Origin: a virus
DNA length: 64,000 nucleotides
Virus record (IMG/VR): IMGVR_UViG_3300020166_000747
Strand: one strand, 5' to 3'
The notes beneath the pieces were generated by a model. It was not told the origin of the DNA. It did no database searches and saw only the letters and a program-made list of their open reading frames with translations. This document shows, piece by piece, positions 3,778 to 63,104 of this stretch. How positions within the stretch are numbered: position 1 is the first letter of the stretch; every line of letters begins with the position of its first letter. The position numbers and the translations under genes are program-made.

Positions 3778-3780
3778 GAT

Positions 3781-40370: not shown

Positions 40371-41426
40371 TTATTCTACTGTACTTAGGCCGTCTATAAC
40401 ATCTCCATCGATGACCATATCAACCGGATGTTTTTCTCCATAGAATTCATTTTGTTCCCAGCATTGGTCTTCTTCATTCCAATCAAACCAAGGGCTAACT
40501 GCTAATACATAGTTAGTCCTTTTATGCCCTGGCATCGGCTTTGCTACATATGGCCTGTGTGTTACATATGTATCCCATACATACCAATTTCCGGGAGTAA
40601 ACGATTTTGTTCCGTAATCTTCTATTTCGATACCATATGCATTCTCTGGATTATCAAGTGCTAGGTTTATACGAAGTTCGTAAAACCAGCTTTCATCTCT
40701 ATGCCATAAGTATTTGTTTGCATTCTCTTGCGTTGCTTTATCGTCAATGCCTTTAATTTGAGCAATACGACTACGCACGGGAGAAGACTTAATCCTATCT
40801 CTGAGAGTGCCCAGATATCCATGCCCAGAACATTCACTCCAATTCCTAAACCCCCATGTGTCTGGGTACGTATCTTTGTTGATACGTTCGCCTACATCTT
40901 TTCTATCTTCATACGTATCTAAAAGTTCACTTAGCATCTTATCATCAATTATACCATGTTGATGTAAGTACTTAAAGCCGTGATGCATACCAAACTCTTG
41001 AGTTTCGCTCCACAGGTCTTTATCTAAACGTTTTTCCATGATTTTTTCAAATAGTGAAAAGTTCTTCATAAACAGTTCGTCTGGGATATTATTTCTAGGA
41101 TATCCTAATGTCTGTGCGTTCGATGGAATGTTGCCATATCTATATGTAGGATTAGTTACTAAACTTAATCCGCCATAATTAGAACTTCTAGCAAACTTTC
41201 CTTGATATATATTTAAAAACCCATACCAACCATACTTAACGAATGCATCTTCAATGCTATCTTTTAGTGCATCTATGTCTAACTGTGAATCTTTAAATTC
41301 AAACAGAACACCTTCTTTACTCGGTTTCATTGTTTTTGCATACTTGTCAGTGTCTAGTGTTTCTGCAATCCAAGCATGTACGGCTTTTCTGTCTGGGCAA
41401 TCTTTTATATAAAATCTTTTCTTCAT
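40371..41426 (-). CDS. putative 2OG-Fe(II)/Asp-Asn hydroxylase-like oxygenase
   Basis: WHRD...DTYVTH facial-triad pattern. Confidence 0.6.
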   Translation of the reverse strand: MKKRFYIKDCPDRKAVHAWIAETLDTDKYAKTMKPSKEGVLFEFKDSQLDIDALKDSIEDAFVKYGWYGFLNIYQGKFARSSNYGGLSLVTNPTYRYGNIPSNAQTLGYPRNNIPDELFMKNFSLFEKIMEKRLDKDLWSETQEFGMHHGFKYLHQHGIIDDKMLSELLDTYEDRKDVGERINKDTYPDTWGFRNWSECSGHGYLGTLRDRIKSSPVRSRIAQIKGIDDKATQENANKYLWHRDESWFYELRINLALDNPENAYGIEIEDYGTKSFTPGNWYVWDTYVTHRPYVAKPMPGHKRTNYVLAVSPWFDWNEEDQCWEQNEFYGEKHPVDMVIDGDVIDGLSTVE

Positions 41427-42598
41427 TTCTTATAACTCACATCACCTGGGTAGATCGGAACCATTGCACCAGGCGCGCGTTTTGGGATCTTACTATCTGC
41501 ACTAGATACGCAACTATCTGAAATACATACCTTAGGTGCATCGAACAGTTTAAACCCGCTTTCAATATACCCTAGAGGCTCGTCGGAGCAACTGTAAGAG
41601 CGTTTAATAGACCCATCAGGTTCACGTATGATAATACCCTTAAACCCACTTGTGCAATCCCAGCCTTTAAACTTATTAAAGTTAAACGCATTGAAACGTT
41701 CTGCTTGGTCCATATAGTACTTGTCGCCCTTACTATCTTCAAACTCAACTTGCATGATAGGTGGGACGTTCTTATCATCACCGTTTAACATATCCATCTT
41801 ATACATAGAACCTGTACGAGGTTTTGGACGCTTTGCTTTGATATCATTTGCTTTCGCAATAGTATCAGTATACGCACGTTGCGGCATACCGTTCTGCATC
41901 ATCTTTAATTGTTCATCAGTATAACCATCTACAACACGTGACGCTGTAGGATCGGACTGAGGTTTTAGTGTAACATTGATGCCACGCTTATGAAAGTACA
42001 TTGCATTGTCCCAATCTCTTTCGAACCACTCGGGGACTAGAACCATGTTAATTGTCACTTGCACATCGTGTTCCATACAGAACAACAGCTTATCAGCAAA
42101 TTCTTCCTGCTTTGCATATTCACTGTGGAATGATGCAGTAATACTAGCACGATGAAACTTTGCAACAATATCACAATATGTCTGAAACCAATCCATCTTA
42201 CGTGCCATATTTGTTGTCATATGAACAGAGGTATAATTAGTGTTATCGACATCATCAGCCAAATGCTGCAAAATATCCAGGTATCCTGGATGAAAAGTAG
42301 GCTCACCGCCTGACAGACTAAAATGAAAGCTATTAAAACTGTTATCACGTGCTTGCCTCTTTATTTCATCTATTGTTGCTAAACATAACTCTGTGGGCCT
42401 GTGGTCTTTTCTATCGCTCCTAGCATAAGGCCAGCAGTACGAACACTTGTAATTACAGAAACGTCCTAATAACCAAGATACTGAAAATAAGTCTCTGTAT
42501 AAAAGTGTTCGCTGCCCGACTTTTACAATATCATCGTATGGAGTTGCAGTAAAGTCATATTGTGACCAATAGTCTGCGTCTTTCTTAATCTCTGTCAT
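41423..42598 (-). CDS. radical SAM protein
   Basis: WLLGRFCNYKCSYC, SGGEPT, C-terminal Cys cluster. Confidence 0.92.
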   Translation of the reverse strand: MTEIKKDADYWSQYDFTATPYDDIVKVGQRTLLYRDLFSVSWLLGRFCNYKCSYCWPYARSDRKDHRPTELCLATIDEIKRQARDNSFNSFHFSLSGGEPTFHPGYLDILQHLADDVDNTNYTSVHMTTNMARKMDWFQTYCDIVAKFHRASITASFHSEYAKQEEFADKLLFCMEHDVQVTINMVLVPEWFERDWDNAMYFHKRGINVTLKPQSDPTASRVVDGYTDEQLKMMQNGMPQRAYTDTIAKANDIKAKRPKPRTGSMYKMDMLNGDDKNVPPIMQVEFEDSKGDKYYMDQAERFNAFNFNKFKGWDCTSGFKGIIIREPDGSIKRSYSCSDEPLGYIESGFKLFDAPKVCISDSCVSSADSKIPKRAPGAMVPIYPGDVSYKK

Positions 42599-42600
42599 AT

Positions 42601-44028
42601 TTATACCTTATACTTCTTCATTGCTGTATATAGTTCTGGCAGTTGCCGTTCCATATCTTCATCTCTGATATTATCTAACTTACCATTGTAGTCCCAAAAC
42701 TTCTTATTATTTTCTTCTGTAAACCAATCTTCTCCATACATAAAATTAATGTTAGTATCTAGAAGTTGGTTCATCTTTTCAATTGCCCATTCTCTATTAG
42801 CTGGCTTAATCATTCCCATCATAGCAGGATTCTTTTTTGCTGGACTATGAAAGTCAATAGTATCTACGATACTATCTTTGAATTCTGTTCTGAACGCTTC
42901 CCAACTATCACGTACTTGATCTTTGACATCTTTTGGTAAGAAGCGTGTACTCAATTCGTGTGGTCTATGTATAGGATGTACGTTAGCATAAGGTTTAGGA
43001 TTGTTTTTTAGCATAGGAGATATAACAGCAAAGTCCTGTTGTATCTTCCATTTTAAAAACTCAGGTAAATGAAATGCATTCAATGAGCCGATAGTAAAAG
43101 CGATCCATGCTCTAAACTTCATTGTTTCTGTGCCAACTTCATCTAGCTTCTTTAGATTTTTTTCTATTAGTTTCGACTTTAGCGGATTACGTACATACTC
43201 TAGTGTATCACCTATGCCGTCCATTGAGATACCAAACTGCACTTGCTTAAATTCTGACCACAGTTCTAATGCACGTGGCTGAATATTAGTAAGGTTTGTA
43301 TTGTATTCTAGTGTAATATCCTTAGAATATCCTTTTTCTACACAATGATTAAGGAATTCATAATGACGTTCAATAATTAGTGGCTCTCCACCAACTAGAT
43401 ATACATGTTGCATACCAGCGACATTGTTTTCTAAATTTTCCCAGAAATGGTCACGATGTACCCAATCATAGTCATCAGCAACGAACTTGCCCTTTTCATT
43501 CTTATACATTTCTACGATGCCATGGGTGTCTTTGAATCTGTTTGTCCCCCACATCTTCACGTAATCATCATACCATGCACTTGAATCCATTGGAGAACAC
43601 ATACGACACTTTAGATTACAAAAGTTACCTAAACGAATATCGTAATAAGTTTGTTTGATGTGGTCTAAGTCAATTTTGCCGTGTTCATCTGTATGCTTAA
43701 CTGCATCTTCCCAAGTAATATGTTTAGCAAATCTTTCACCATCATTAATGCGGCGCGATTTCATACCTGCTTTTTCTTCACGTACACAACGTACACATTC
43801 AGGATGCCATTCCCCATCTAACATAGTCTTGCGAATTTCTTTGGCAAGGGGTGAGTTAATAGCATCAGTGATATTATCACGATGCAAGTTATAATTTTTA
43901 CCGTCTTCCTTCTTATATATTCCTCGTGTTGGTCCCTGATTAGCATGACAACAAACTCTCAAGTCACCGTTTGCACGTGTTGAAATATTAATCCAAGGAA
44001 GAATACAGAATGTATCACTCTTTTGCAT
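42601..44028 (-). CDS. twitch-domain radical SAM protein
   Basis: FCILPW, VCC, CVRC, CNLKCRMC, GGEP. Confidence 0.92.
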   Translation of the reverse strand: MQKSDTFCILPWINISTRANGDLRVCCHANQGPTRGIYKKEDGKNYNLHRDNITDAINSPLAKEIRKTMLDGEWHPECVRCVREEKAGMKSRRINDGERFAKHITWEDAVKHTDEHGKIDLDHIKQTYYDIRLGNFCNLKCRMCSPMDSSAWYDDYVKMWGTNRFKDTHGIVEMYKNEKGKFVADDYDWVHRDHFWENLENNVAGMQHVYLVGGEPLIIERHYEFLNHCVEKGYSKDITLEYNTNLTNIQPRALELWSEFKQVQFGISMDGIGDTLEYVRNPLKSKLIEKNLKKLDEVGTETMKFRAWIAFTIGSLNAFHLPEFLKWKIQQDFAVISPMLKNNPKPYANVHPIHRPHELSTRFLPKDVKDQVRDSWEAFRTEFKDSIVDTIDFHSPAKKNPAMMGMIKPANREWAIEKMNQLLDTNINFMYGEDWFTEENNKKFWDYNGKLDNIRDEDMERQLPELYTAMKKYKV

Positions 44029-45241
44029 ATTCGTTCATCTCCGTATCTTCAAAGTTTTGCTCACCGTTGCCTCTGAAATCTAATTCTTTGCCACAAGTCT
44101 TACCGCATATCCAAAGACGTTCTTGTGAGTTAGTATTCCAGCTTGAAACTAAATCGTTTGAGAAGTATGGTGACTTTAAGATTTCAAAGATACTATGCTT
44201 TGATAGATTATTAAAGTCAGCTCCATACTTTTCCCACATATCTTTGTTATCTTCAATGCGTCTTGGCGTTGCCATGTCATGACCAATCTTACTGTAGTAA
44301 TGTCCCTGCCAACAGCACGGCCAAACTTTACCTTGATAGTCAACAAAGATACTTTTATCTCTTGCTGTTTGGCATTCTATCTCTGTTGTATTTACATAAT
44401 TATCAAAGCTCTTGTGTTTCTTGATAACTGCATCTACTTTCTCTGTAGTGTTAGCTTGCTTCTTTGGTGCAGCAAGAATAGTCTCTAATGCTTTTTCTTT
44501 TTGTTCTGTAGTCTTTTCTTGCTTTTTCTTTTGCGCTACATGTTGTTTAGCAACGAACTGAATCTCTGTACGCTTAACAATCTGCTCTTGTTCTTCGCCA
44601 TCATAATGTGTTGGGATTACATAACGATTTGATTTCTTATAGCGAAACTTGACAAAGCCCATGTCTTCTGCTAGTTGTCGTGCTTCTTCAATTTGATGTT
44701 CATTGTGCGCAAAACCAATGTAATCCCAACGTGCAATCCCGCCGGCGGCGATGAATGCTTTTGAATTGCGCATAATCGTTGACCATTTAGAGTTTACACG
44801 ATACAAGTGATTAGTATCTTCTAATCCATCAATAGCAAAGATTACCTTGTCTGGTTTTCGCATGATAGTAGCAAGCTCAGTCCACCATGCTTCTGTCTGT
44901 GCTGAACCATTTGTACTAAGTGTTACTTGTGGTACTCCCATATCTTTGCACATCTTAACTACTTCAAGTAGATAAGGATACATAATAGGATCACCATAGT
45001 TACCATTGATAAAGACATGATTGGGAAGAAACGGCTTAGTGTCTTCTAATATCTGTTGAATTAGTCTAGGATCAGTGTCAGTTAAGTCTAAGTCATCACG
45101 CTTTCGGAGATTTCCATCGTCCCCATCCATTCCGGTTGTTCTTCCGCACATAGGACATAGCAAATTGCATCTAGAAGTTAATTCTAAATGTAATACACCG
45201 ATGTTAAAGTCTATATACTTTAAGTTCTCTGATTTCGCCAT
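44015..45241 (-). CDS. radical SAM/SPASM-type protein
   Basis: CNLLCPMC, GNYGDP, PCCW, CGKTC. Confidence 0.92.
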   Translation of the reverse strand: MAKSENLKYIDFNIGVLHLELTSRCNLLCPMCGRTTGMDGDDGNLRKRDDLDLTDTDPRLIQQILEDTKPFLPNHVFINGNYGDPIMYPYLLEVVKMCKDMGVPQVTLSTNGSAQTEAWWTELATIMRKPDKVIFAIDGLEDTNHLYRVNSKWSTIMRNSKAFIAAGGIARWDYIGFAHNEHQIEEARQLAEDMGFVKFRYKKSNRYVIPTHYDGEEQEQIVKRTEIQFVAKQHVAQKKKQEKTTEQKEKALETILAAPKKQANTTEKVDAVIKKHKSFDNYVNTTEIECQTARDKSIFVDYQGKVWPCCWQGHYYSKIGHDMATPRRIEDNKDMWEKYGADFNNLSKHSIFEILKSPYFSNDLVSSWNTNSQERLWICGKTCGKELDFRGNGEQNFEDTEMNEYAKE

Positions 45242-46812
45242 CTCATAAACACTTTTTCTGGCATACTATTATATGCGTTATTTAATTCTGATACTTGCAT
45301 TCCTCGCGTAGGAGACCCGTCCCAATCTGCACTATGAACACGCATACGCGCATTAATCTCTGACAGGTCATTCATGAATTTAGAATAAACCTCTCTGCGT
45401 TCTTCATATGATAGAACCCAAGTTGTATAACGTGTAGTAATGTAGTTACTACTCCATAATACATCATCAAAGTTATCATCTGGTTCTTCGATTATATTCA
45501 ATAAAGAACTCCAATCTCTTATGAGATTAGACTGTGTATATGTAGTTTCATTATGTCTTACACGCTCAAAGAATTCGTACCATTCTTCCATGCTATCAAA
45601 AATACGTAGGATACTTGCTTCATATGCATCTTTCGCACGTTCTCTTTCACTTGCCCAATCTTCTGATTCATAGTCAAAGTCTTCGTAAATAGAGATTAGC
45701 CCTATATCTTTATTATAATAGTTTTCTTTCAAAAAGTCAAGATACATATTGAAGTTTCTTGGATCCCATTCTTCATTTACCCACTTACGTACATTAAGTG
45801 CATTCTGTGAGATATCAAAGTATTTAACCTTTACATCGTCAATACTTGTATCGGCATGCCAATTTCTCATGAATGCGAATGTTTTGAAACCTGCTGCAAC
45901 TGAATATAAATTTCGCAGTGGCTTCTTTGATGGTACAAATTTAATATCATCAATACTTTCAGTGTTTAGAATCCACATGGCATGCGGTGACCGTTCTACT
46001 GTAAACTGTTGGTAATCTAGGAAATCTTTCTTTGTGCCATCAAGTGGCGTGTCCCACTTCTTAAAGTTTGCACAATCTTCTCTAAAGAACTTTTTAAATT
46101 CTGCTTGTTCTTCTTTGATTTCTGGATACACATATGTTTTTGTTGCGCGTGCCGATTCATCAAAGTTAGGAACAGACAGTCCCATTTTTAAGCTCTCGTT
46201 AATGAAGTTCCACCCAAAGCCAGTACGTTTGATTTCTTCTTGTGCTGGGCCGGGAGCTAGATACTTAGGTGTATGACTATCATGAAAGTTTTCTGTACTA
46301 CGAATAGCTTGTCTTACTTCTGTCTTTTTAACACTGAAATCGCCAAACAACGGTTCTCCAAGTTCTTTCCATAGCTTATAATTAATAACAAAGCATTGCT
46401 CATGTAACCTAAACCAACGATCCTTATGTTGTTCATCAAGAATATGCCCCATTACTAGAAACTTATTCTGTTGCGCCATTGGTAGATATTCATGATTACA
46501 GTATTCTCTAAAAAGACTATAACCATGCTCAAGCGGTTTCCAAGCATCATATAAAAAATTACCATATGCTTGCACGACAACCATATCAATGTTTGATTCT
46601 TTTTCATCAGTCTTTACAGCTTGTAAAATTTTATCTACTGAATTTTCTTCATAGATTGGATGCTTAAAGAAACTGTAATTGTTTCTTAAAAAATTATAAG
46701 TAATCGCTCTCATATAATTACTGATTTCATCATCACCAATCGTTTTAGATGTGTCTAGTACTGCACATCTAATCTGTGGCATGAAGTTGTAAGAGCGTTG
46801 ATTTTTCTTCAT
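45220..46812 (-). CDS. uncharacterised 530-aa enzyme
   Basis: Long ORF in the operon; C-half YSVAAG...YFDIS suggests a Rossmann-like fold. Confidence 0.6.
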   Translation of the reverse strand: MKKNQRSYNFMPQIRCAVLDTSKTIGDDEISNYMRAITYNFLRNNYSFFKHPIYEENSVDKILQAVKTDEKESNIDMVVVQAYGNFLYDAWKPLEHGYSLFREYCNHEYLPMAQQNKFLVMGHILDEQHKDRWFRLHEQCFVINYKLWKELGEPLFGDFSVKKTEVRQAIRSTENFHDSHTPKYLAPGPAQEEIKRTGFGWNFINESLKMGLSVPNFDESARATKTYVYPEIKEEQAEFKKFFREDCANFKKWDTPLDGTKKDFLDYQQFTVERSPHAMWILNTESIDDIKFVPSKKPLRNLYSVAAGFKTFAFMRNWHADTSIDDVKVKYFDISQNALNVRKWVNEEWDPRNFNMYLDFLKENYYNKDIGLISIYEDFDYESEDWASERERAKDAYEASILRIFDSMEEWYEFFERVRHNETTYTQSNLIRDWSSLLNIIEEPDDNFDDVLWSSNYITTRYTTWVLSYEERREVYSKFMNDLSEINARMRVHSADWDGSPTRGMQVSELNNAYNSMPEKVFMRWRNQRT

Positions 46813-47609
46813 TGTGTCACTTTATTCCAACTGTTTAGTATTAAATCTTCAAATTCTTTTCCGCCATACTGTCCATGAACAATCATATGTACACGAACTT
46901 CATCTGTGTCATTCATCACAGCATGTTTGTGTCCTACATTCATCTTAAACATTTTGCCTGGCTTCCACGGAACATACGCATTGTCATCAATCATTTTAAA
47001 GTAACAATGCTCTGGGTTGTTCAACGATATATTTAGCGGTCCTAATTTGTCGTGTTCGTAATCAGTATGCGGAGTGATATAACCGCCTGGTTCTAGATAC
47101 ATGAAACGTACTCGATCAAACGCATTATATCCGGGGATAGATTTAATCATCTCTACTGTTGTTGGGCATTTATCTGCAATCTCTGTCCAGCCATATGCTT
47201 TACGTGCTTCATATTCGTTTTCATATGTAAACCCGGCTGCAATTACATCTTTACTATCCCAATGTTGTGATATGTGCTTGTGTAACCCATGTAGAGTCAG
47301 GGAGCGCCAACCACGATGCCCATAATCGTTTGGATCATTTTCATCATAGTCATTTGAACGATGCTGAATTGCCTCATCATAGACTTCCATCGCCTCATCA
47401 TAGCATTTCTTCCAATCAAACTCTGGGACATCTAATTCAAGCCAAGGTATACTAGACTCATGTGTTACCCACTTTGATTTTCTAAAACGTGCAGTTGGTG
47501 GGAACATAGGCTCATTCATCATAGCATCTACAAACGAACCTGGCATTGTATCAAAGCTATAACTATTTCTATCTTTGAAATGTTCTTCTATTGTTTTTGG
47601 ATAATCCAT
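46809..47609 (-). CDS. aspartyl/asparaginyl beta-hydroxylase-like 2OG-Fe(II) oxygenase
   Basis: LEPGGYITPHTD...KHAVMN...RVHMIVH. Confidence 0.85.
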   Translation of the reverse strand: MDYPKTIEEHFKDRNSYSFDTMPGSFVDAMMNEPMFPPTARFRKSKWVTHESSIPWLELDVPEFDWKKCYDEAMEVYDEAIQHRSNDYDENDPNDYGHRGWRSLTLHGLHKHISQHWDSKDVIAAGFTYENEYEARKAYGWTEIADKCPTTVEMIKSIPGYNAFDRVRFMYLEPGGYITPHTDYEHDKLGPLNISLNNPEHCYFKMIDDNAYVPWKPGKMFKMNVGHKHAVMNDTDEVRVHMIVHGQYGGKEFEDLILNSWNKVTQ

Positions 47610-48271
47610 TATTCTAATCTCCCAAATGCCCATTTACGTTCTTCGCACCACCAACATTCACCACAATGCCCAAGTCCGGGGTCTTCTATTTTTTCAAAAT
47701 AATCACTTGTAGGATCATATTCGCAACTACGTGTAATACTATATAAATCTTCTAGTAGATTTTCTTCATTATACATTTTTGCAATTGATCTTTTATCTAC
47801 GTTTGTCCATGGTGTATATGCAACGCCATTGACGATAAACGGCTTAATTACTCCAGGATTACGCTTTGTCTCTGTAATCTTTAATTTAAAATTATCTGAT
47901 ATATTAGTCGGCGGGTTCTCTGTTATGCCAGTGTATAGCATTTTTATAACGCCATTATCTATATAAGGTCTCAGCTTTGGAAATAGTGTCTCAGAACTCT
48001 GTACTTCACAGTATGAAATATGATGCTCTATATTACTGTTGCCTGTTAATTGAATACAACGTTCAACTACTTTAGTAGCGACCTCTACGTTATGTCTGCT
48101 ACGTTGATTATTACCAGTAGAGAATATATAAATCTTATCTTCGCAATGCTTCATTAGGTTATACAAAAGTATAGAGCTATCTGCTCCTCCGCTACAGCTT
48201 ACGCCTACCGGTCCTTCATATATATCTAAATTCACACCAGATACATCGATAGATTTAATTACTCTAGTCAA
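47609..48271 (-). CDS. QueC-like PP-loop ATPase
   Basis: SGGADS PP-loop; TRSC...HCGECWWC Zn motif. Confidence 0.8.
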   Translation of the reverse strand: MTRVIKSIDVSGVNLDIYEGPVGVSCSGGADSSILLYNLMKHCEDKIYIFSTGNNQRSRHNVEVATKVVERCIQLTGNSNIEHHISYCEVQSSETLFPKLRPYIDNGVIKMLYTGITENPPTNISDNFKLKITETKRNPGVIKPFIVNGVAYTPWTNVDKRSIAKMYNEENLLEDLYSITRSCEYDPTSDYFEKIEDPGLGHCGECWWCEERKWAFGRLE

Positions 48272-54604: not shown

Positions 54605-55536
54605 TATTTGTATCCTATTTTCATGTAATATTGTTTATCACCGTATGTGATAACACCAGTGTATAGTTCAAAACTCATTGGAAATTGCTTGTTAAAGTTT
54701 TGTGAACTTGCAAACGGTTTAGGTACATCACCAGTTTCACCGACTAGTACAAGTCTGCGCATGTCTGGAATCATCTTATACCAATCTTTATAGTTCTTCA
54801 AATAACTAATATTAGTATTAATAAGAGTTCCAGGAATTTCTGAGAATGGATTACTTAGCTCACCGTTCTGTAATTGTGTGATAAACGTATGTTCATCATA
54901 TCCGATATTGAACAAGTCTTGTGTCGTTGCTTTGAAGCGCCAGTCTGCAAGTAGTTCTTTACTCATCATTTCATCTGCTAAGAATTGACATACACCATTG
55001 ATGTCAAATGAGCGGATATTCTCGAATCTAAGTCTAGTGTCAAATAGCATCGCTGGAAGGATTCCCATGCCGCCGCCAAGAACATAGATTGCACCAAGAT
55101 ACTTTTCACCGAATGCATGTTGCATCTGTTGTGTAATCCAACTATATACTTTAGCATTCTCTTTGTTAACGAAAGATGAAATGTCAACGTTTGGATACGA
55201 GTAAATGATTTCTTTTAATCTGTCTGTTAGCTTGTCTTCAATTGGCGGAGTAATATGTGTCAAGAAGTCCATTGCTTGGCGATAGTTACCTAGTTGTTGT
55301 GCAACGTTCTCTTTTGAGTATGTAACTGCCATATCTTGATAATCGTAATCAAGTTTCGCTAGTGGCTTTTCACGTCTACGACTAACACGCTTGTAGTTGA
55401 TTGTTTCAGTAATCTCTGGTTCTTCGTCCAATTCTTCCTGTTCAATCAAGTCTGTTACGCCAACCTCATCGTATAACTCATCATTCTTTTTAATGTTTGC
55501 AGCTCTGCGGTTTCTACGTTCACGTATATTACTCAT
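54604..55536 (-). CDS. MTase-fold paralogue
   Basis: VLGGGMG...SFDIN, INTN, C-terminal M.IG.K shared with the neighbour. Confidence 0.65.
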   Translation of the reverse strand: MSNIRERRNRRAANIKKNDELYDEVGVTDLIEQEELDEEPEITETINYKRVSRRREKPLAKLDYDYQDMAVTYSKENVAQQLGNYRQAMDFLTHITPPIEDKLTDRLKEIIYSYPNVDISSFVNKENAKVYSWITQQMQHAFGEKYLGAIYVLGGGMGILPAMLFDTRLRFENIRSFDINGVCQFLADEMMSKELLADWRFKATTQDLFNIGYDEHTFITQLQNGELSNPFSEIPGTLINTNISYLKNYKDWYKMIPDMRRLVLVGETGDVPKPFASSQNFNKQFPMSFELYTGVITYGDKQYYMKIGYK

Positions 55537-58500
55537 CGTTCTTTTCCTTAAACTTTTCTTCTAGCCATTCAAAGTCGTTAATCTTTCCTAGCATTTCATC
55601 ATTGCCTGCATATTCTGTTCCCCATGCACGTCCTGCTCTAGCACCTGCAATTGCATACGTACCGAACTCACGGTCTTCACCTTTAGTACACCATGCTTCT
55701 AATCTTTCATCGTCTTCGTCTTGTTTGTTACGATGAATAATGCTAGAACTCAACTTAGTACATTCGCGGAAAGCAGACTTCCAAGTATTGAATGGGTCTG
55801 TATTAAATGCCGTGTAGTTAGCTGGTGTTGGCATCGGCTTAAACTTCTCAGAGATAGATGTTGTAAAGTCAATGCGCCAGTCTTTTGCATCACGTAGCAA
55901 CTGTGTTGGGAATAGTTTTAGTCCGCCATAACCATAAATCAAATCATTCACTGGGTTCTTAGACTTCCAAGTGTGTACTGTGTCTTCGTCCCATACGCTT
56001 GGGAAATATTCAAAGTTGAATTCTTCAAGCAATAGAGCATCAGCATCAATCACATAGAACATGCGAGTATCAGCTAAGTTTGCTGCCGCTTGGTGTGCAT
56101 TAAAGATACCTTTAACCCCATGTACTCTCTTTGCATGTGGCACACGTTCTAATAGTTTAGCATAGTTTCTATCAGCGAACTTCTCCTGATAACTCAACAT
56201 GATAACATCATATGGAATGTCACGTGTAACCGCTGTTGCCTTCTTGATTGGTTTCTTATTCTTAAAAGTCATCTTACGTAACTTGTCAGCATCAGGTTTT
56301 AATTCTTTAATTGCACTTGCTGGAATAAGTTTTAGTCCGCCGAATTGATGCACAAACCCAGTGTATGGGTTTTCTTTAGGCCACAGATGAAAGTGTGACT
56401 TATGATGTCGATCAACATAGTGTGTTCTGTCAAAATCTTCTAGCATTTCTACATCATTGTCTAGTGCCCAGAAATAACCGGTCTTTGTCATCCTAGCGGC
56501 TTTTTGATATGCCTCTGCCAAGTCTGTTGCATCAATCACATCAATGTTCTTGTGTTCTGTGAACTTTGCAGTGTTTTCAGAATACATACCTTCATCAAAA
56601 TAGAATGCTGGGTGACCTACAACACGTGATGCAGTTTTATCTACACGAATAATATTTTTAAATCTATCAAATGAGAAGTCTTCTTTGCTCGGATTGAATT
56701 GCTCAAGATGTGGTCTATGTACAAGATATACACCAGCTTCCCCGTCACCCTCACTTTTAAACGCAAATACGTTTTCGATAGAGTGAATATCTGGATAGTA
56801 ATCAAAATCCCAATCTTCTAGTAGGTCAACCGCAGTATCAACTACCCAATAAAACACGTGCTTCTTGGATTGTGTGTATGCTTTGTATGGGTCGCGGGTG
56901 TAATACTTTTTGATAGTGTGTCTATCTGGAATACGTGCCACGATATCATCATAATATTTTACATTCTCTGAATGATATGCTTTATTTGATAGAGCAAGAC
57001 CGCCATGTCCTAGTCTTTCACCTTTGCGTGACTCAAAAGAGAAAATATGCGTAGGACCAGTGTCATACAAGTCTGGATAGAAATCATCAATCGTAGTATC
57101 CGTTAATTGTAAATCTGGGTTAACCATCCAGAATGTATCTTGTGTAGCAAGTTTTACTGCCTCTTCAACTGTACGTGCTTCGACACGTTCAATTGTTTGT
57201 AGTTTACCTGCAACTATATCAGTATCTTTTTGTTGTTCAGTATCGCCGCCATTATGCGGAACAAGGCGTACTCCGTTACGAATAGCGGTGTCTCCATTAA
57301 GAACATTAAAGTTATGCGTATAGTGTCTATCATATGATAATGGCACATAGTCTGGTTGTTCAAAGTCTACGTGGTTCGCAACTAACCAAACCATTTCTGT
57401 ATCAGCTTTTGATGCAACCGACGTATCTAACAAATCATCTACACGCATAACATCAAATGGTATGTCAGTAAGTTCTTTAGTTTCTACATAAGATGCTCTA
57501 CGTCTAAAGTTAAATTTTGTGTATTGCTTATCATCGAATTCTGCATAGTCTTTTCTGAATAATCCAACCCCATAGAATTCACGTGCATCACCTGCATGAT
57601 TTGTTCTTTGCCATACGACAATCTGTTTGCGACCTTCTTCAGTTAATGAAAAATCAAATTCGTAATCAAAGTTGAAGTCTCCAACTTTAGTATCGGCAGT
57701 TATGATGTAATAATAATTGTACTTAGAATTCTTACTTGCATACTCATGCAATTCTATCCCAGTCTTGTGATTGCAACGTTCTATACGTGGAAAGCGTTTT
57801 TCAAGTTCTTTAAAGTTTGCATCACCGAAGCCACGATCCCAATAGAATATATTATATTCTGGTACTACAGAAACTTCACGTTCATGGAACTTTACACTGT
57901 ATTCATCATATTCCTTAGTTAATAGAACTACGCCCTTTTGAAAAATATGTGCAGATGCTTGTTCATATAAATCAGGATAGAAATCAAAATTAGTAAGTTC
58001 AACTGCTGGATCAACAATAAGTGACGGGTATGATTTTACTTGTTCTATTCCTCCTTTGAGTGTTGATGACAGAATAACATCAAACTCTTTCACATTGCCC
58101 AACACCTTATCAATATCTTTTTGTTTTTCTTCATCATAGTTACATGGAACAAGTTTGATATGATTACGTGCTACTGCACCTGTATGTGTTACAATGTTAA
58201 AATTATGAATATACTTTTTATCATACGATGGTGGAACAAAGTCTGGTGTGAAGTTTTCTACACAATCATCTACTACCCAAGCCATTTCATAACCACATTT
58301 GTTAACATCATCTATAGATTTAACAGTCGGATACATGATTGGTTTCACATCATTCGTTTGTGCATAGATTGCTCTACGCCTGAAATCAAAGTTATGATAC
58401 TTCTTATCTGCAAATAAGTCATAGTCTTTTCTGAACAGGCCCACACCTTTATATTCTAATGGCATATCATTAAAGTCTGTTTTCTGCCACACCACAATCT

Positions 58501-60049
58501 GTTGTCTGCCTTCTTCTGTCATAGAAAAATCAAACTCGTAATTGAAGTCAAAATTACTCACATCAACATCATCTGTAATGAAATAGTAATAATTGAATTT
58601 ACTTTTCTCTTGTGCTTGTTTGTGTGCTTCTACAATGTCACCTGATAGCACAGTATAATCTGTATATTGTTTTACACTCTCTGTATTATTTCCAGAGTCA
58701 TATACAAACACATCATATTTTGGGATATGGGAAACCACTGTCTCATGGAACTTTACATTATATTCGTCATACTCACTATTAATAAACACAACGCCTTTAT
58801 TGAACACATGTGCGCTTGCTAAGTCATACAAGTCAGGATAAAAGTCAAAACTATCTACTAGTTCTACTGCTGGATCAACAATTAAAGTAGGATAAGTTTC
58901 AGCTTTTGATATCCCACCTTTAAGTGTAGATGCATTAACAACATTTGTTTCTTTTAAAGTACCTACTACTTGATCAATATCTTTTTGTAACTCAATGTCT
59001 ACATTTTTGGGGACAAGTCTAACACCATTTCGTACTACATTACCGTTCGATGTTTTTACGTTAAAGTTATGAATGACTTCTCTATCATATGAAAACGGAT
59101 AGTATTCGTCAGAAAAATCTTCTACATCATCATGTACAAGCCAATACATATCAGTATCAACATCATGATTTAAATTATGAAGGTCTTTAGTACGAATTAC
59201 AGGAAACTCTAAGTCACGTGCAATAGGGTCACGTTCATATACTGCTTTGCGTCTAAAGTTAAAGATAGCATACTCACGTTCTTTAAACATGAGACCATCT
59301 TTTGGGAACAATCCAATACCGTGATACTCTCTAACTAAATTTGTCTTGGGGTTTTCTTTTTGCCATACAACAACTTTTTGATTTTCTTTATCTAGTCCAA
59401 ATGCAAACGAGTAATCAAAATTGAATGTGTCAAAAATCTCTGTATTTGGATGTATTAGATAATAGAAATCAGTACGTGTTTCTTTGCGACACATTTCATG
59501 TACATCAATATTAGTTTCGCCACGAACTACATTTATACCAGGGAACCGTTCTTTTAGCTTTTCAAAGTTTTCTTTCCCATAGTCTTTTTCCCAATAAAAG
59601 ATATCATATGTTTCAGTAGTCGGCTTGTATTCTACATTGTCAGTAGTATGCTCTTTAAAGTCACCAGTCAAATAATATGCATCTTGGATATACTGAACTT
59701 CTTTGTTCTTCACATCACTAGTTTTAAATAGCTTAACACCAACAACTGAACGGAATACATTACGCTCCTCTGCATTCCAAACATGTACAACGTCTTCATC
59801 CCAATTATCGGTCTGAAAGTCGAAATCGAAATCATCATCGACACATACATCTGGATCAATAATCCAGAAGTGTTTTGTGTTTGTGATAGCAGCAATTTTA
59901 CTAATCGCTTTATCAATCTTTGGATCGCTCCAGTCTTCTAGATTGATTTTAACCATGCGAAAGTTAGGATATTTTTTACATATCCTATCTAAACGTTCAT
60001 TAGTTTCTCTATCTGATTTGTAAGTTAGATAAAAACCGTCGTATGCCAT
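55529..60049 (-). CDS. giant protein of tandem GT-A glycosyltransferase-like repeats
   Basis: Recurring aromatic-x-x-DxD-like motifs (IIDPD, ALDND, VIDAD); about 290-aa internal repeats. Confidence 0.7.
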   Translation of the reverse strand: MAYDGFYLTYKSDRETNERLDRICKKYPNFRMVKINLEDWSDPKIDKAISKIAAITNTKHFWIIDPDVCVDDDFDFDFQTDNWDEDVVHVWNAEERNVFRSVVGVKLFKTSDVKNKEVQYIQDAYYLTGDFKEHTTDNVEYKPTTETYDIFYWEKDYGKENFEKLKERFPGINVVRGETNIDVHEMCRKETRTDFYYLIHPNTEIFDTFNFDYSFAFGLDKENQKVVVWQKENPKTNLVREYHGIGLFPKDGLMFKEREYAIFNFRRKAVYERDPIARDLEFPVIRTKDLHNLNHDVDTDMYWLVHDDVEDFSDEYYPFSYDREVIHNFNVKTSNGNVVRNGVRLVPKNVDIELQKDIDQVVGTLKETNVVNASTLKGGISKAETYPTLIVDPAVELVDSFDFYPDLYDLASAHVFNKGVVFINSEYDEYNVKFHETVVSHIPKYDVFVYDSGNNTESVKQYTDYTVLSGDIVEAHKQAQEKSKFNYYYFITDDVDVSNFDFNYEFDFSMTEEGRQQIVVWQKTDFNDMPLEYKGVGLFRKDYDLFADKKYHNFDFRRRAIYAQTNDVKPIMYPTVKSIDDVNKCGYEMAWVVDDCVENFTPDFVPPSYDKKYIHNFNIVTHTGAVARNHIKLVPCNYDEEKQKDIDKVLGNVKEFDVILSSTLKGGIEQVKSYPSLIVDPAVELTNFDFYPDLYEQASAHIFQKGVVLLTKEYDEYSVKFHEREVSVVPEYNIFYWDRGFGDANFKELEKRFPRIERCNHKTGIELHEYASKNSKYNYYYIITADTKVGDFNFDYEFDFSLTEEGRKQIVVWQRTNHAGDAREFYGVGLFRKDYAEFDDKQYTKFNFRRRASYVETKELTDIPFDVMRVDDLLDTSVASKADTEMVWLVANHVDFEQPDYVPLSYDRHYTHNFNVLNGDTAIRNGVRLVPHNGGDTEQQKDTDIVAGKLQTIERVEARTVEEAVKLATQDTFWMVNPDLQLTDTTIDDFYPDLYDTGPTHIFSFESRKGERLGHGGLALSNKAYHSENVKYYDDIVARIPDRHTIKKYYTRDPYKAYTQSKKHVFYWVVDTAVDLLEDWDFDYYPDIHSIENVFAFKSEGDGEAGVYLVHRPHLEQFNPSKEDFSFDRFKNIIRVDKTASRVVGHPAFYFDEGMYSENTAKFTEHKNIDVIDATDLAEAYQKAARMTKTGYFWALDNDVEMLEDFDRTHYVDRHHKSHFHLWPKENPYTGFVHQFGGLKLIPASAIKELKPDADKLRKMTFKNKKPIKKATAVTRDIPYDVIMLSYQEKFADRNYAKLLERVPHAKRVHGVKGIFNAHQAAANLADTRMFYVIDADALLLEEFNFEYFPSVWDEDTVHTWKSKNPVNDLIYGYGGLKLFPTQLLRDAKDWRIDFTTSISEKFKPMPTPANYTAFNTDPFNTWKSAFRECTKLSSSIIHRNKQDEDDERLEAWCTKGEDREFGTYAIAGARAGRAWGTEYAGNDEMLGKINDFEWLEEKFKEKNDE

Positions 60050-60087
60050 ACTTACCCTATAGTTGTAATTTCTTACATTATAACAGA

Positions 60088-61620
60088 TTATTCGTCTGTT
60101 GTAAAGACTTTAATTCCGTAATGATTAGAAAAATCTTCTGCATCTTTCAAGTCATTGACAATTGGTTGTCCTTTAATGTTCAATGATGTATTTACTAAGA
60201 TTGGACAACCAGTCTTTTCTTTAAACTTTGTTAACAACTCGTATAGACCTGGATGTGTTTCTTTGTTTACTGTCTGCACACGTGATGTTCCGTCTTTGTG
60301 TATAATAGCTGGAAACTTTTCTGGATACTTACATGTTGCAACGAACTGCATATAAGGAGATTGTGTGATGTTCTTTGGCATATCGAAGTAATCATGCACA
60401 TCCTCTTCTAAAATCATAGGAGCAAATGGTCTAAACTTCTGTCTGCGTTTGATTTCATTCATACGATCCTTAATAGTATCTCCACGAGGATCTGCTGTGA
60501 GTGTACGATTACCCAATGCTCTTGGACCAAACTCTGCTCGTCCATTTGCAATGCCAATGATATCTCCATTAAGCAATGCCGCTAATGACTTCTCTACGGG
60601 ATACGTACCTTCGATATTGTGACCTAGATATGCAGTAGTCCAGTTAATTCTATTCTTAAAGAATTTTTGTGAAGCACCAATACAACTACCAGCATCACCC
60701 GGGTTTGGCATAATCCATACATTATCATAGTTGTGCGTGATGTTACTATTAGCACTACAGTTAAGTGCGCAACCTCCCATGATAACTAGATTTTTACTCT
60801 TACATACTTTTCTAGCATGTGAGATTATATTATCAAGTATCATTTCATAAACTTTCTGTGTCGCTGCCGCTAAATCAAATAAGTCTTGTTCGATCGTTAG
60901 TTCTGGTAGTAACCACTTACAACCCCTATGTAAATTTTTTCTAAAAGATACAATCGTAAAAAATTCACCGCTGTGGTCATTTAGTTTAATACCAATCTCA
61001 TCTAATAAATGAGATACTAAAGTTTTACCTTGATATTCTCTATTTGGATTACCATATGCTGCCATGCCCATGAGAATGTATTCGTCTTCCTGTGGCTTTA
61101 GTCCTAAACGCTGTGTCATTGCACTATAGAATAGCCCAACTGAATTAGGATAAGACTGTTCGTACTCTCTTAATAGCGTATCATTCACACCATTCCAAAT
61201 AGTAAGAGTTTCAAATTCTCCCATACTATCGATGACAACAACTGCGGCATCATCAAATCCACTAGTGAAATAGCCACTAGCAGCATGTGTGTAATGATGC
61301 GATTGATATTTAATCTTAATACCATTAAGTTCAGGGAAGTTCTTCAAATACCGTTTTGGCATTTCTTCTTTGTCAAATGCTAAACTATATTGTCTAGCAG
61401 TGAATTGTCTAAACTTCTTTAGTAATGGTCTTTCATACCACGCAATAAAATCTGGCTTACCATACGATAGTGCCTCTTGAATGATTTCATCATTCAGAAG
61501 CGGGTCATTTTTAATCTTAGAATAGCGTTCACTATGACTAGCAAATAGAATTTCGCCGTCTTTAATAACACTAACTGCGGCATCATGGTTAAGTGCGCCA
61601 GATATACCTAGTACAATCAT
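60088..61620 (-). CDS. O-carbamoyltransferase (NodU/CmcH/TobZ family)
   Basis: HDAA, ERYS..K, HHYTHA, GGCALN, PGDAG, EFGPRALGNR, RPFAP, DGTSRVQTV, NTSLN. Confidence 0.95.
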   Translation of the reverse strand: MIVLGISGALNHDAAVSVIKDGEILFASHSERYSKIKNDPLLNDEIIQEALSYGKPDFIAWYERPLLKKFRQFTARQYSLAFDKEEMPKRYLKNFPELNGIKIKYQSHHYTHAASGYFTSGFDDAAVVVIDSMGEFETLTIWNGVNDTLLREYEQSYPNSVGLFYSAMTQRLGLKPQEDEYILMGMAAYGNPNREYQGKTLVSHLLDEIGIKLNDHSGEFFTIVSFRKNLHRGCKWLLPELTIEQDLFDLAAATQKVYEMILDNIISHARKVCKSKNLVIMGGCALNCSANSNITHNYDNVWIMPNPGDAGSCIGASQKFFKNRINWTTAYLGHNIEGTYPVEKSLAALLNGDIIGIANGRAEFGPRALGNRTLTADPRGDTIKDRMNEIKRRQKFRPFAPMILEEDVHDYFDMPKNITQSPYMQFVATCKYPEKFPAIIHKDGTSRVQTVNKETHPGLYELLTKFKEKTGCPILVNTSLNIKGQPIVNDLKDAEDFSNHYGIKVFTTDE

Positions 61621-61627
61621 TTAATTC

Positions 61628-61741
61628 TCACTTATAGATGAATGGATCACGCTTGCGTAGTTCTTCTAAACGTGCTTTTAGTTCTTTGCGTCTTTTATAC
61701 TCTGCCCATGGCCAAGTAATAATTTCCCAAATCTTTCTCAT
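61628..61741 (-). CDS. small basic protein (37 aa)
   Basis: MRKIWEIITWPWAEYKRRKELKARLEELRKRDPFIYK fills the gap; ATGA overlap and GAAGG SD. Confidence 0.7.
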   Translation of the reverse strand: MRKIWEIITWPWAEYKRRKELKARLEELRKRDPFIYK

Positions 61742-62472
61742 TGTCCTTCTCCTTTTCTTGTTGTTTCGATATCATCGAACAAAATCTTTGCCCAGTCTGC
61801 GTGTGCAGTTTCGTCTGGATGCATGTAGCGTTCATCGCCTTCTTGTTTGAAATACATTTCGTTGTCATGCATGTATGTAAAGAACGTTTGCTGTTCGTAT
61901 ACACGTGTCATATCAAGTTGTGTCAATACGTTATTCATATCAGCTTGTTCGCATAGTTCAGTAAACTTAGTTGGCTCAAGTAAATTGGGCGTTAGATTTA
62001 ATGAATTAAAAATCACATACTCTAAGCCTGCATTCTTAAAGAAATTCTGTAGTGTAAGAACGTGAATTAAATATTGATGGAAGTCATACACTGGAGACCA
62101 GAAATGTTTCATATACAGTGTATTAAATAAATCAACATCACGATTTGTTTGTTCATCTAACATAATATTACCGTGATACTCATGTGCAGGAACATTATGA
62201 ATTAGTGTATTCGATGCTTCAATAAAGTGTTCACGTCTGCTCGGCGCAGTCATACCGATAGCACAGAATGGTTTCTTACCTTCTGCTAACAAGTCACTTA
62301 CTGTTGTAATAGTATTACGAACAATAAACTGATTACTTACGCCACGCTGTGCTTCTGTAACTGTTTCGCCCCTGTCCAATCCAAGCATCTCTGCTAGTTC
62401 AAAAGGCCACGCTTTATCTTTTAGTGCAAGACCAGTTCCGTATGTAAAACTACATCCGTTCGCATATAACAT
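61738..62472 (-). CDS. SGNH/GDSL-like protein
   Basis: ANGCSFT, GVSN, C-terminal HP...H. Confidence 0.7.
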   Translation of the reverse strand: MLYANGCSFTYGTGLALKDKAWPFELAEMLGLDRGETVTEAQRGVSNQFIVRNTITTVSDLLAEGKKPFCAIGMTAPSRREHFIEASNTLIHNVPAHEYHGNIMLDEQTNRDVDLFNTLYMKHFWSPVYDFHQYLIHVLTLQNFFKNAGLEYVIFNSLNLTPNLLEPTKFTELCEQADMNNVLTQLDMTRVYEQQTFFTYMHDNEMYFKQEGDERYMHPDETAHADWAKILFDDIETTRKGEGQ

Positions 62473-62489
62473 ATTTTTATTCCTCTAAT

Positions 62490-63104
62490 TTACTTCTGAT
62501 TATAATCGAAACAGCCTAATAATGCAAGACGTTGTCCCGGTCCAGTATTTTCTACTTTGTGTTCCCAATTACTATTTAGGTACCATAGTTCACCAGGATT
62601 CATTAATTGCTTAACGACCACATCATCTTCTGTTTTCATATGCATGATTTGTTCGCCTTGTACTACAACCGTAAAGCGATCCTTGCCAGGTTGGTCAATA
62701 TGATATCGCAACTCATCATTATTTTTTATAGTTGCATAACGCATTCTATAAAGCGGTGACTGTAGCATATATGCTACTTCTTCATAAACGTGTTGAAATT
62801 CTTCTCTGAGTACAGTGAAGTTATGTTCAATATACTCGGTGCCGTCTAAGTGAGTTTGTATGTCATGCTGACTATAGTTTAAAACATCCGCTCCAGTAAC
62901 CTGGTTAAGGTCATCCGATAGTTGCGCCTTTCTTAATTTAACGGCGCTATCTAGAGACGGTGGCGTATTATGAAAGTTATTTGAGAGTGTCAATATGGCA
63001 GATTCACTTATGTTTCCGAAATATTTAAAGTACGGATATTTTAGTCTCTTCCGTATGATATCGCGCTTACCTAGATACTTAATTTTATTAAAGTTATCAT
63101 CCAT
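62490..63104 (-). CDS. Asp/Asn hydroxylase-like cupin oxygenase
   Basis: YHID...WEHKVEN...RLAL. Confidence 0.75.
   Translation of the reverse strand: MDDNFNKIKYLGKRDIIRKRLKYPYFKYFGNISESAILTLSNNFHNTPPSLDSAVKLRKAQLSDDLNQVTGADVLNYSQHDIQTHLDGTEYIEHNFTVLREEFQHVYEEVAYMLQSPLYRMRYATIKNNDELRYHIDQPGKDRFTVVVQGEQIMHMKTEDDVVVKQLMNPGELWYLNSNWEHKVENTGPGQRLALLGCFDYNQK

Follow-up and report, generated by a model that had tools for sequence, protein, structure and literature searches.

Gene Content and Layout of the Cluster

The stretch of DNA analyzed here (64,000 nt of the IMG/VR record IMGVR_UViG_3300020166_000747, referred to as the window, to which all coordinates belong) comes from an uncultured marine jumbo phage and carries, between positions 40371 and 63104 of the minus strand, a 23-kb cluster of tailoring-enzyme genes in which radical S-adenosylmethionine (SAM) enzymes accompany a long protein with glycosyltransferase A (GT-A)-like modules. 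The family-B DNA polymerase shares 45–48% identity with the enzymes of Sinorhizobium phage Phosso and Agrobacterium phage Atu_ph07, and a nucleotide search returned no nucleotide-level match to the whole cluster among cultured phages. The cluster consists of 17 co-oriented open reading frames (ORFs), numbered g01 to g17 from left to right and thus read from g17 to g01, most of them overlapping by 1–40 nt, plus a 37-aa ORF at 61628–61741. An earlier sequence-only reading of this DNA had counted about 19 co-oriented, mostly overlapping genes; the orientation and the overlap stand, and the count is corrected to 18.

The operon encodes seven radical SAM enzymes, three cupin/AspH-type oxygenases, a PP-loop ATPase, two proteins with a methyltransferase (MTase) fold, the 1506-aa protein with GT-A-like modules, a carbamoyltransferase and a DUF6071 protein. 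The 18 genes are intact and co-transcribable, and their products are soluble: membrane-type hydrophobic segments were found in none of the 17 larger proteins, 16 of which have an acidic isoelectric point (the exception is g10, with a value of 7.9). No gene for a carrier-lipid transferase, flippase, polymerase, ligase, membrane protein or DNA transglycosylase was seen within the 23 kb.

Radical SAM Enzymes of Three Classes

The seven radical SAM enzymes listed in the sequence-only reading each have one intact CxxxCxxC motif, the binding site of the 4Fe–4S cluster that cleaves SAM, and six of them pass Pfam PF04055. The remaining one, g10, reaches 26.1 where 29.5 is required; the motif is present, and the protein is 45–55% identical to homologues that do carry PF04055. 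They fall into three classes, A (g03, g08 and g11), B (g02 and g09) and C (g04 and g10).

Class A enzymes have a twitch-like Cys region at the N-terminus and the motif CNLxCxMC. They are g11 (51983–53197, 404 aa, CNLGCRMC at residue 122), the core gene product g08 (48264–49820, 518 aa) and g03 (42601–44028, 475 aa, CNLKCRMC). The NCBIfam model NF033640 (N_Twi_rSAM) asks for at least 170 bits over the whole protein, its N-terminal twitch-like Cys region included; the three pass it with 292, 426 and 364 bits, respectively, covering profile positions 1–398, while g02, g04, g09 and g10 lie outside that family with only 34–54 bits. To our knowledge, no member of this catalogued family has a known substrate or reaction, so membership by itself gives no function to g03, g08 and g11.

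Class B, with the motif CNYKCxYC, comprises g02 (41423–42598, 391 aa, CNYKCSYC, PF04055 47.5 bits), which is a core gene and the most conserved one, and its divergent paralogue g09 (49850–50953, 367 aa, CNYKCTYC, PF04055 41 bits). No match to g02 was found in cultured phages, and an Atlas look-up returned nothing for it. Class C is characterized by the motif CxxxCPMC and a SPASM-like C-terminus; its members are the core gene product g10 (50911–51999, 362 aa, CQATCPMC) and g04 (44015–45241, 408 aa, CNLLCPMC, PF04055 33 bits, SPASM 24 bits), which are paralogues with 33% identity.

The GT-A Protein g14 and the MTase-Fold Proteins g12 and g13

The largest protein of the cluster, g14 (55529–60049, 1506 aa), had been described as a glycosyltransferase-repeat protein. 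This description holds: about 13 tandem modules are detected with a profile of the terminal domain, and the terminal module (55793–56218) has the GT-A fold. The protein contains three super-repeats of about 295 aa (56948–59608), each made of three GT-A-like modules, and a helical C-terminal domain (55532–55792) follows the terminal module. The relatives of g14 have about 1520, about 1219 or 917 aa, which correspond to three, two or one copies of the super-repeat, so their length differences are explained by variation of the copy number within the coding gene. Strong conservation is confined to the last module and the helical C-terminal domain. This terminal part recurs in 5489 metagenomic clusters, mostly as stand-alone proteins of about 366 or about 530 aa with no Pfam label.

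The terminal module contains a DxD motif (DAD; D156-x-D158) that is invariant in 16 sequences. Residues 1180–1506 of g14 gave an AlphaFold2 (AF2) model with a predicted local distance difference test (pLDDT) value of 84.6, which Foldseek matched with a probability of 0.96–1.0 to RmlT, mimivirus R699, SunS, LH3 and PBCV-1 A64R, and which VIA-align matched with Z of 8–10 over model residues 98–239. The model thus shows a Rossmann-like GT-A, or nucleotide-diphospho-sugar-transferase, fold for the terminal module, and sugar transfer by g14 is inferred from it. At the level of sequence families, g14 has no Pfam match, the cut-offs of the family 2 glycosyltransferase (GT2) models PF00535 and PF13641 are not reached, and only a few of 120 listed g14 homologues carry either of them.

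Concerning the two MTase-fold proteins, which also held up, g12 (53198–54604, 468 aa, a core gene) consists of N-terminal helical repeats and a domain with the fold of class I SAM methyltransferases (53201–53878). The AF2 model of its C-terminal 226 residues (g12C) reached a pLDDT of 89.1 and gave more than 500 Foldseek matches at E ≤ 0.001, the listed ones being almost all SAM-dependent methyltransferases. The best of them was the Nod-factor N-methyltransferase NodS (3ofk; E = 4e-9, template-modelling (TM) scores 0.58/0.66). Class I enzymes are recognized by a seven-strand Rossmann-like fold and a glycine-rich motif I with an acidic residue after beta-2; in g12C, motif I has an unusual form (xGW.G), and a conserved S-x-D-I-D comes after it. 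The model supports a class I SAM methyltransferase fold, with SAM binding as a prediction. The Atlas look-up also gave a weak MTase lead for g12. The neighbouring protein g13 (54604–55536, 310 aa) has a charged N-terminus and an MTase-fold domain paralogous to the C-terminus of g12 (21% identity, shared motifs); its Pfam match to TENA is sub-threshold.

Conservation among Phages

In nine IMG/VR loci of four lineages the genes keep the order g17-g16-g15-g14-g13-g12-(g11)-g10-(g9)-g8-(g7)-g6-g5, and in the longer stretches of these relatives the cluster continues to g02, which is 82–98% identical, and to ThyA. The gene g01 is replaced in two lineages (absent from loci L082 and L083), and g07 is absent from L001 and L003. 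A contig of sequencing run X17 joins position 47603 to 48273, with exactly g07 gone, in agreement with these two lineages; in natural populations g07 is thus a cassette that is either present or absent.

At a larger scale, a scan with g08 found the backbone in at least 515 IMG/VR stretches. Among 51 viral loci with enough flank, the order was g14, g12, g10, g08, and then a g03-like gene and g02; g10 was present in 50 of these loci, g14 and g12 in 46 each, g07 in 25 and g15 in 18. The co-occurrence in related phages on which the sequence-only reading depended is therefore found, both as synteny in the four lineages and as recurrence of the backbone. In one relative, G002, seven more radical SAM paralogues and a g14-like GT-A gene form another island (L166, 3700–15700), about 20 kb past the cluster, which means that these phages carry two radical-SAM/GT-A islands.

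Bacterial Occurrence and Gene Fusions

The same backbone, made of the g14 terminal GT-A module, g12, g10 (class C), g08 (class A) and g02 (class B), is common to phages and predatory bacteria. Relatives of g08 with 57–69% identity are found on chromosomes and metagenome-assembled genomes of Bdellovibrionota, with 64–69% for relatives on bacterial chromosomes, and a scan of species-representative genomes gave 69 bacterial loci, mostly from Bdellovibrionota, with a few from the Candidate Phyla Radiation (CPR) and some that are probably mis-binned phage contigs. In the order of Bdellovibrio sp. HCB2-146 (Bdellovibrionales), 21 of the 121 genomes sampled (about 17%) carry one copy, and the backbone proteins there are 45–68% identical. 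The genes beside bacterial g08 are g10-like (45–55% identity), g02-like (53–63%), g14-terminal-like (30–50%) and g12C-like (30–36%); extra paralogues of classes A and C are common, and so are PP-loop, cupin and carbamoyltransferase genes.

The surroundings of the bacterial cassettes are informative about the substrate. In the cultured Bdellovibrio sp. HCB2-146, six GT2 genes are interleaved and translationally coupled with the radical SAM genes; on a Bacteriovoracaceae chromosome, a GT2 gene and a GT-C (PMT_2) gene lie at the cassette; and a Halobacteriovoraceae locus has three GT2 genes. It is mainly this placement among GT2 and GT-C genes that points to a sugar as the substrate. Also in HCB2-146 (L050, 17260–21327), the radical-SAM/GT2 cassette is adjoined by the gene for a fibre-like protein, at least 1355 aa long, that ends in an intramolecular chaperone of the Peptidase_S74 type. 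The genome of this bacterium has only four S74 genes. In four other genomes checked the adjacency is absent, so the link between fibre and cassette is an anecdote and not a rule.

Natural fusions join several of the backbone proteins. In proteins of 713–722 aa (P0186 and P0215) a g08 orthologue is joined to a GT-A module with its helical domain, and proteins of 802–810 aa (P0247 and P0249) combine classes C and A. Judged from these sequences, the fusions suggest a physical association of the class A, B and C radical SAM enzymes with the GT-A and MTase-fold parts. A complex prediction for g08 with the terminal module of g14 had a score of 0.00, and it was counted neither for nor against such an association. 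The cultured Ralstonia phage RsoM2USA has a mini-cassette made of GT-A, class A radical SAM, GT-A and MTase-fold genes. Outside bacteria and phages, proteins of the dinoflagellate Symbiodinium (P0243–P0246) consist of a g10 homologue (41–44% identity) fused to domains of flavodoxin and of an FNR-type reductase, so that the class C family is found in a eukaryote with a built-in electron donor.

Oxygenases, Other Tailoring Enzymes and a Microprotein

Three hydroxylases of the 2-oxoglutarate (2OG)-dependent type had been proposed, of which one is confirmed by family membership and two are connected through profile comparison. The first, g06 (46809–47633, 274 aa), belongs to the Asp/Asn beta-hydroxylase family of Fe(II)/2OG oxygenases: it scores 63.2 bits with PF05118, for which membership is taken as more than 22.6 bits together with the iron ligands HxD/G...H, here H189-x-D191...H237, and it also gives weak matches to LpxO and OlsC. 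The cupin/AspH-like protein g17 (62490–63104, 204 aa) is sub-threshold in Pfam (Cupin_2 19 bits, PF05118 16.8 bits) and aligns by hhalign to the g06 family at 94% with H135-x-D137...H182 in register. The third, g01 (40371–41426, 351 aa, WHRDE...H), with a sub-threshold 13.2 bits for PF05118, is a probable oxygenase of the same type, since hhalign places it with the g06 family at 85% (E = 7e-6) with the metal ligands aligned.

The PP-loop ATPase is well founded, as g07 (47609–48271, 220 aa, from the accessory cassette mentioned above) has the SGGxDS motif, a Pfam match to QueC across 47 residues (PF06508, 34 bits) and a QueC-like, zinc-ribbon-like C-terminal end with CxxCxxC. Its identification as QueC was rejected, because TIGR00364 gave 24 bits against a cut-off of 150.3, and in the PP-loop region only. 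Equally sound is the carbamoyltransferase g15 (60088–61620, 510 aa), of the NodU/CmcH/TobZ type, with Kae1-like and YrdC-like domains (Carbam_trans_N 142.7 bits, Carbam_trans_C 183.9 bits; phrog_1601, E = 1.5e-103). It is a member of the superfamily and not a NodU orthologue, the score with NF041651 being 149.5 bits against 1000. A gene of Ralstonia phage RsoM2USA, sited elsewhere in that genome than its mini-cassette, encodes a protein 49.8% identical to g15.

Two further proteins are less well placed. The DUF6071 protein g16 (61738–62472, 244 aa; PF19547 39.5 bits against a cut-off of 27) is 72–89% identical to its relatives and had no PDB relative in a profile search. Assignment to the SGNH/GDSL hydrolases is based on a block I catalytic Ser (GDS), Gly, Asn and a block V DxxH; the resemblance of g16, called SGNH-like in the sequence-only reading, is at motif level only, with NGCSFTYG at the N-terminus and D...H near the C-terminus. 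The conserved protein g05 (45220–46812, 530 aa; 54–85% identical in relatives) matched no recognisable family in Pfam, NCBIfam and PDB sequence and profile searches, and hhalign related it at 5% to the MTase-like family and at 0.1% to the GT-A profile. PDB sequence and profile searches with g01, g05, g08, g12, g14 and g16 returned nothing usable.

The 118-nt space that seemed to separate g16 from g15 is filled by the 37-aa ORF (61628–61741), translationally coupled, whose ATG overlaps the stop codon of g16 and which ends 7 nt before g15. The encoded microprotein, with the C-terminus ...KRDPFIYK, is kept in all four phage lineages with an invariant KRDPFIY, and gene calls on 124 public contigs include exactly this sequence. 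It always adjoins the carbamoyltransferase gene, on either side, also in distant islands, while the bacterial cassettes lack it, which ties it to g15 rather than to the radical SAM core. Its role could be that of a small subunit, a regulator or a substrate. Membership of the cluster in a maturase system for peptides made on the ribosome and modified after translation (RiPPs) was considered and set aside: the maturase models gave 15–32 bits with the radical SAM enzymes of the cluster against cut-offs of 300–650, and the only small ORF tracks the carbamoyltransferase, whereas such a system would have a precursor peptide beside the maturase and co-varying with it.

Borders and Promoters

The GC skew switches sign exactly at the edge of the cluster. 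The left neighbour, on the opposite strand, encodes ThyA, a canonical thymidylate synthase that scores 342 bits over the equivalog cut-off. The right neighbour is a divergent, plus-strand radical SAM gene, the only one that the BlsE model TIGR04466 matched (37 bits against a cut-off of 400). Apart from the g16–g15 space, the intergenic gaps of the cluster measure 18–39 nt, and an Rfam search of the region from 39 to 64 kb at E ≤ 0.1 revealed no RNA family.

Two late-promoter motifs had been pointed out in the sequence-only reading, CATAAATA at 63138–63145 and AATAAATA at 49847–49854, both on the minus strand. The sites are real in the sense that they are conserved in relatives, ATAAATA being kept before g17 in L001, L002 and L003, and NATAAATA before g08 in the same three loci. 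The first belongs to a late-promoter-like palindrome (63130–63145, both strands, GATAAATA/CATAAATA) located in a divergent gap of 38 nt, 34 nt upstream of the ATG of g17; this palindrome is perfect (ATAAATAT/ATATTTAT), offers NATAAATA on both strands and extends over the ATG of the radical SAM gene on the plus strand. The second is in a gap of 30 nt ahead of g08. Both differ from the exact T4 consensus. The test for a T4-type late promoter was an exact TATAAATA about 10 nt upstream of a transcript start, and this sequence occurs twice in the window against 7.5 times expected by chance, neither time at a promoter position of the cluster.

The top site in a sigma-70 scan is a different one, which the sequence-only reading had missed. 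It lies at 60077–60105 on the minus strand, in the gap between g15 and g14 directly upstream of g14, and consists of TTTACA, a 17-nt spacer and TG-TATAAT (TTTACA-17-TGTTATAAT), with 11 of 12 positions matched and an extended −10 element. It is conserved in all four related lineages. This suggests, from the sequence, transcription of g14 and the genes downstream by the host RNA polymerase, that is, early, so that expression of the cluster is probably not purely late. The late timing previously assigned to the pathway is thus only partly supported, as the strongest conserved promoter is of the sigma-70 type and the late motifs are one-off variants.

RNA libraries contributed little in this respect. 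In X3 and X5 the whole stretch was covered at flat depth, in contigs of 67–71 kb, which indicates carry-over of DNA. Libraries X17 and X19, from two other studies, contained only short contigs of 90–97% relatives, which are at most a weak hint of transcription of the cluster, with no strand or start information.

Interpretation: a Proposed Sugar-Editing Pathway

The proposal that the genes form one conserved tailoring pathway is supported, and sugar chemistry fits it best, given the GT-A fold, the GT-A/radical-SAM fusions, the GT2-rich bacterial contexts, and the NodU-type carbamoyltransferase together with a NodS-like MTase fold. The favoured reading is that an unusual sugar, or a short glycan, is built and chemically edited by a self-contained cytoplasmic pathway, and that g14 hands the product to a macromolecular acceptor. 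As a whole, this reading has in our opinion about an even chance of being correct. Its chemical part alone, that the substrate is a sugar, is rather probable. That the acceptor is a protein of the phage is a tentative step, which we consider somewhat doubtful.

In such a pathway, the sets of class A, B and C radical SAM enzymes would abstract hydrogen from sugar carbons, leading to epimerization, dehydration, oxidation or C–C/C-methyl chemistry as known from twitch-type enzymes on sugars and cyclitols, and the three cupin oxygenases would hydroxylate. The PP-loop ATPase g07 may adenylate and amidate a carboxylate, g12 and g13 would methylate, g15 would O-carbamoylate via carbamoyl-AMP, and g16 may attach an O-acyl group or take one off. 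Transfer of the product would fall to the terminal DxD module of g14, whose degenerate repeat modules would serve as a scaffold or for binding. The acceptor could be a protein made in the infected cell, leaning towards a virion or fibre protein, rather than an exported polysaccharide; the former seems likelier in view of the solubility of all the proteins and the absence of genes for a carrier lipid, a flippase or a polymerase. Transcription would probably start from the sigma-70-type promoter before g14 and from the NATAAATA late-like motifs before g17 and g08. The order of steps proposed earlier, with hydroxylation of the target before sugar attachment, is pure inference.

A bolder version can also be formulated, which we regard as less probable still. 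In it, the GT-A module, the MTase-fold protein and the radical SAM enzymes of classes A, B and C would make up one new enzyme machine that edits the sugar by radical chemistry during its transfer. This would be a new mode of glycan biosynthesis, common to attackers of bacteria (giant phages, Bdellovibrionota and some CPR bacteria), which would decorate their own fibres for prey or host recognition with it.

Several observations weigh against the sugar pathway. No gene for the synthesis of a nucleoside-diphosphate sugar lies within the 23 kb, and the GT-A fold class is shared by nucleotidyltransferases such as IspD and MobA, so that g14 need not be a sugar transferase. The NCBIfam equivalogs for radical SAM enzymes acting on sugars, peptides or nucleotides were all far below cut-off, profile searches gave no PDB relative of g08, and we know of no characterized close relative of any enzyme of the cluster. 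SPASM/twitch enzymes and AspH-type oxygenases are also classic modifiers of peptides and proteins, and a conserved microprotein is encoded in the operon. In five related phage fragments of 70–116 kb (17–32% complete), canonical GT2 was not found. With regard to a virion protein as acceptor and to virion genes near the cluster, a search for Baseplate_J in the same five fragments gave nothing, and two large ORFs neighbouring the cluster in a relative had no match in cultured phages.

Among the alternatives, the product could be a free small molecule, derived from a sugar, cyclitol or nucleoside in the manner of aminoglycosides or peptidyl nucleosides, acting as an antibiotic, a toxin or a signal that aids the host or blocks competitors. 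The mixture of twitch-type radical SAM enzymes, a carbamoyltransferase, methyltransferases, 2OG oxygenases and an amidating PP-loop enzyme is that of aminoglycoside and nucleoside antibiotic clusters, as is well established for TobZ, BtrN and PolO/PolH; all the enzymes are soluble, with no acceptor, carrier or export gene in the cluster; a halogenase-ketosynthase cassette is present in the same window; and a secondary metabolite has been proposed for the carbamoyltransferase/cupin/methylase cluster of jumbo cyanophages (Iyer et al., PMC7824862). We nevertheless consider it unlikely, as the core is tied to a GT-A family, the GT2/GT-C surroundings in bacteria resemble the assembly of polymers or glycoconjugates, and a transferase-like protein of 13 modules would be hard to account for. 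Those same bacterial surroundings, typical of envelope glycans, also speak for a sugar placed on the host envelope (lipopolysaccharide, capsule or surface protein). Such a sugar would block superinfection or alter receptor display, a role proposed in print for glycosyltransferase islands of pelagimyophages and cyanophages (PMC7029224, PMC7824862), and the conserved, early-looking promoter before g14 would suit it. The 23 kb lack, however, a membrane protein, flippase, polymerase, ligase or carrier-lipid transferase, no canonical GT2 was found in the five related fragments, and the phage would have to feed its product into the machinery of the host. This explanation is less credible than the previous one.

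It is also conceivable, if improbable, that amino-acid side chains are what the radical SAM and AspH-type enzymes act on, in a peptide or protein that is either the microprotein in a RiPP-like manner or a virion protein, and that the GT-A protein adds a sugar afterwards or has another role. SPASM/twitch radical SAM enzymes and Asp/Asn hydroxylases are typical of peptide modification, the weak maturase matches give it loose support, and the operon does contain a microprotein with an invariant KRDPFIY. On the other hand, that microprotein follows the carbamoyltransferase and is missing from the bacterial cassettes, no maturase equivalog cut-off is reached, the other gaps are too small for a precursor gene, and the identity of 60–68% of g08 and g02 between phages and bacteria favours an invariant small substrate. 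The last possibility, a hypermodification of DNA or RNA bases (hydroxylation, glycosylation and decoration) as a protection against restriction, takes up the DNA-base target offered by the sequence-only reading. In other systems DNA bases are indeed glycosylated by GT-A-like enzymes, thyA and replication genes border the cluster, one of its promoters is of an early type, and, besides the QueC-like PP-loop protein, there are weak radical SAM matches of the QueE, viperin and MoaA types. However, the neighbouring ThyA is canonical, the scores with the QueC and QueE equivalogs fall far short of what these require, and the five related fragments, 17–32% complete, have no PF01702 (TGT/DpdA) match, while 7-deazaguanine DNA modification of the Dpd type is recognized by DpdA/TGT plus QueC, QueD and QueE. 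As the proteins are moreover acidic and their bacterial homologues lie in glycan loci, a base target is very improbable and that part of the earlier reading is not supported.

Relation to Known Systems

The sugar pathway has its closest chemical parallels in BtrN, DesII, AprD4, NeoN and BlsE, radical SAM enzymes with auxiliary Fe–S clusters that act on sugars beside carbamoyl-, methyl- and glycosyltransferases. The present enzymes differ from the BtrN type in that the auxiliary domain of class A is N-terminal and no equivalog model was approached, and also in that the three classes recur as sets, fused to each other and to the GT-A module. With the Nod-factor enzymes NodS and NodU, a rhizobial pair that decorates one oligosaccharide, the likeness is that NodS is the best structural match of g12C and that g15 is of the NodU/CmcH type. 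The identity to NodS is about 9%, with no NodC or NodB, so that it can be said that the analogy is one of logic and not of membership. Soluble, multi-domain transferases with the GT-A fold, which serve the cytoplasmic glycosylation of virion proteins, are encoded by other viruses, chlorovirus PBCV-1 (A064R) and mimivirus (R699/R655), and are among the fold matches of the terminal module of g14; this likeness is at the level of fold only (TM 0.2–0.3, Z about 8), and those systems have no radical SAM enzymes.

Regarding phages, jumbo cyanophages such as S-SSM6a have a carbamoyltransferase/cupin/2OG oxygenase/methylase/halogenase cluster that was predicted to decorate a polysaccharide or to make a sugar-derived metabolite (Iyer, Anantharaman, Krishnan, Burroughs and Aravind 2021, PMC7824862). 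It shares with the present cluster a phage-borne carbamoyltransferase, hydroxylases of the double-stranded beta-helix (DSBH)/cupin type and methyltransferases; it has neither the radical SAM sets nor the multi-module GT-A protein, and the cyanophage carbamoyltransferases are about 30% identical to g15. Pelagimyophages and cyanomyophages have a host recognition cluster (HRC; Zaragoza-Solas et al. 2020, PMC7029224), and cassettes with radical SAM genes have been noted in that of pelagimyophages. What defines the HRC is its location, from VrlC to gp14, and its hypervariability, whereas the present cluster is next to thyA and strongly syntenic. Neither of the two papers analyzes the core described here, and no paper describing the island was found in the literature. 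The assertion that no phage pathway of this composition has been characterized is thus correct as far as searched, with the reservation that the radical-SAM cassettes and the carbamoyltransferase/cupin/methylase cluster were already in print.

Seven radical SAM enzymes of three uncharacterized classes in one operon represent a large block of unexplored chemistry. Knowledge of the product would assign a function to thousands of "hypothetical" genes of ocean viromes, could reveal a new modification of sugars, and would tell whether the decoration by giant phages is meant for the phage particle, the phage DNA or the host. Two culturable carriers of core parts are available, Bdellovibrio sp. HCB2-146 and Ralstonia phage RsoM2USA.

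Other Features of the Window

On the plus strand at 28316–29446 and 35497–36834 there are genes for an AAA+ ATPase (phrog_1297) and for a protein with DUF2201 metallopeptidase and vWA-like domains, a pair that resembles the MoxR-vWA chaperone pair of group 2.2 jumbo phages (Iyer et al. 2021, PMC7824862). Also on the plus strand, 35 kb to the left of the cluster (785–7237), a cytidylyltransferase-like protein, a 689-aa protein containing a GNAT domain and another radical SAM enzyme are encoded together, and this set may be a module for sugar activation or acylation.

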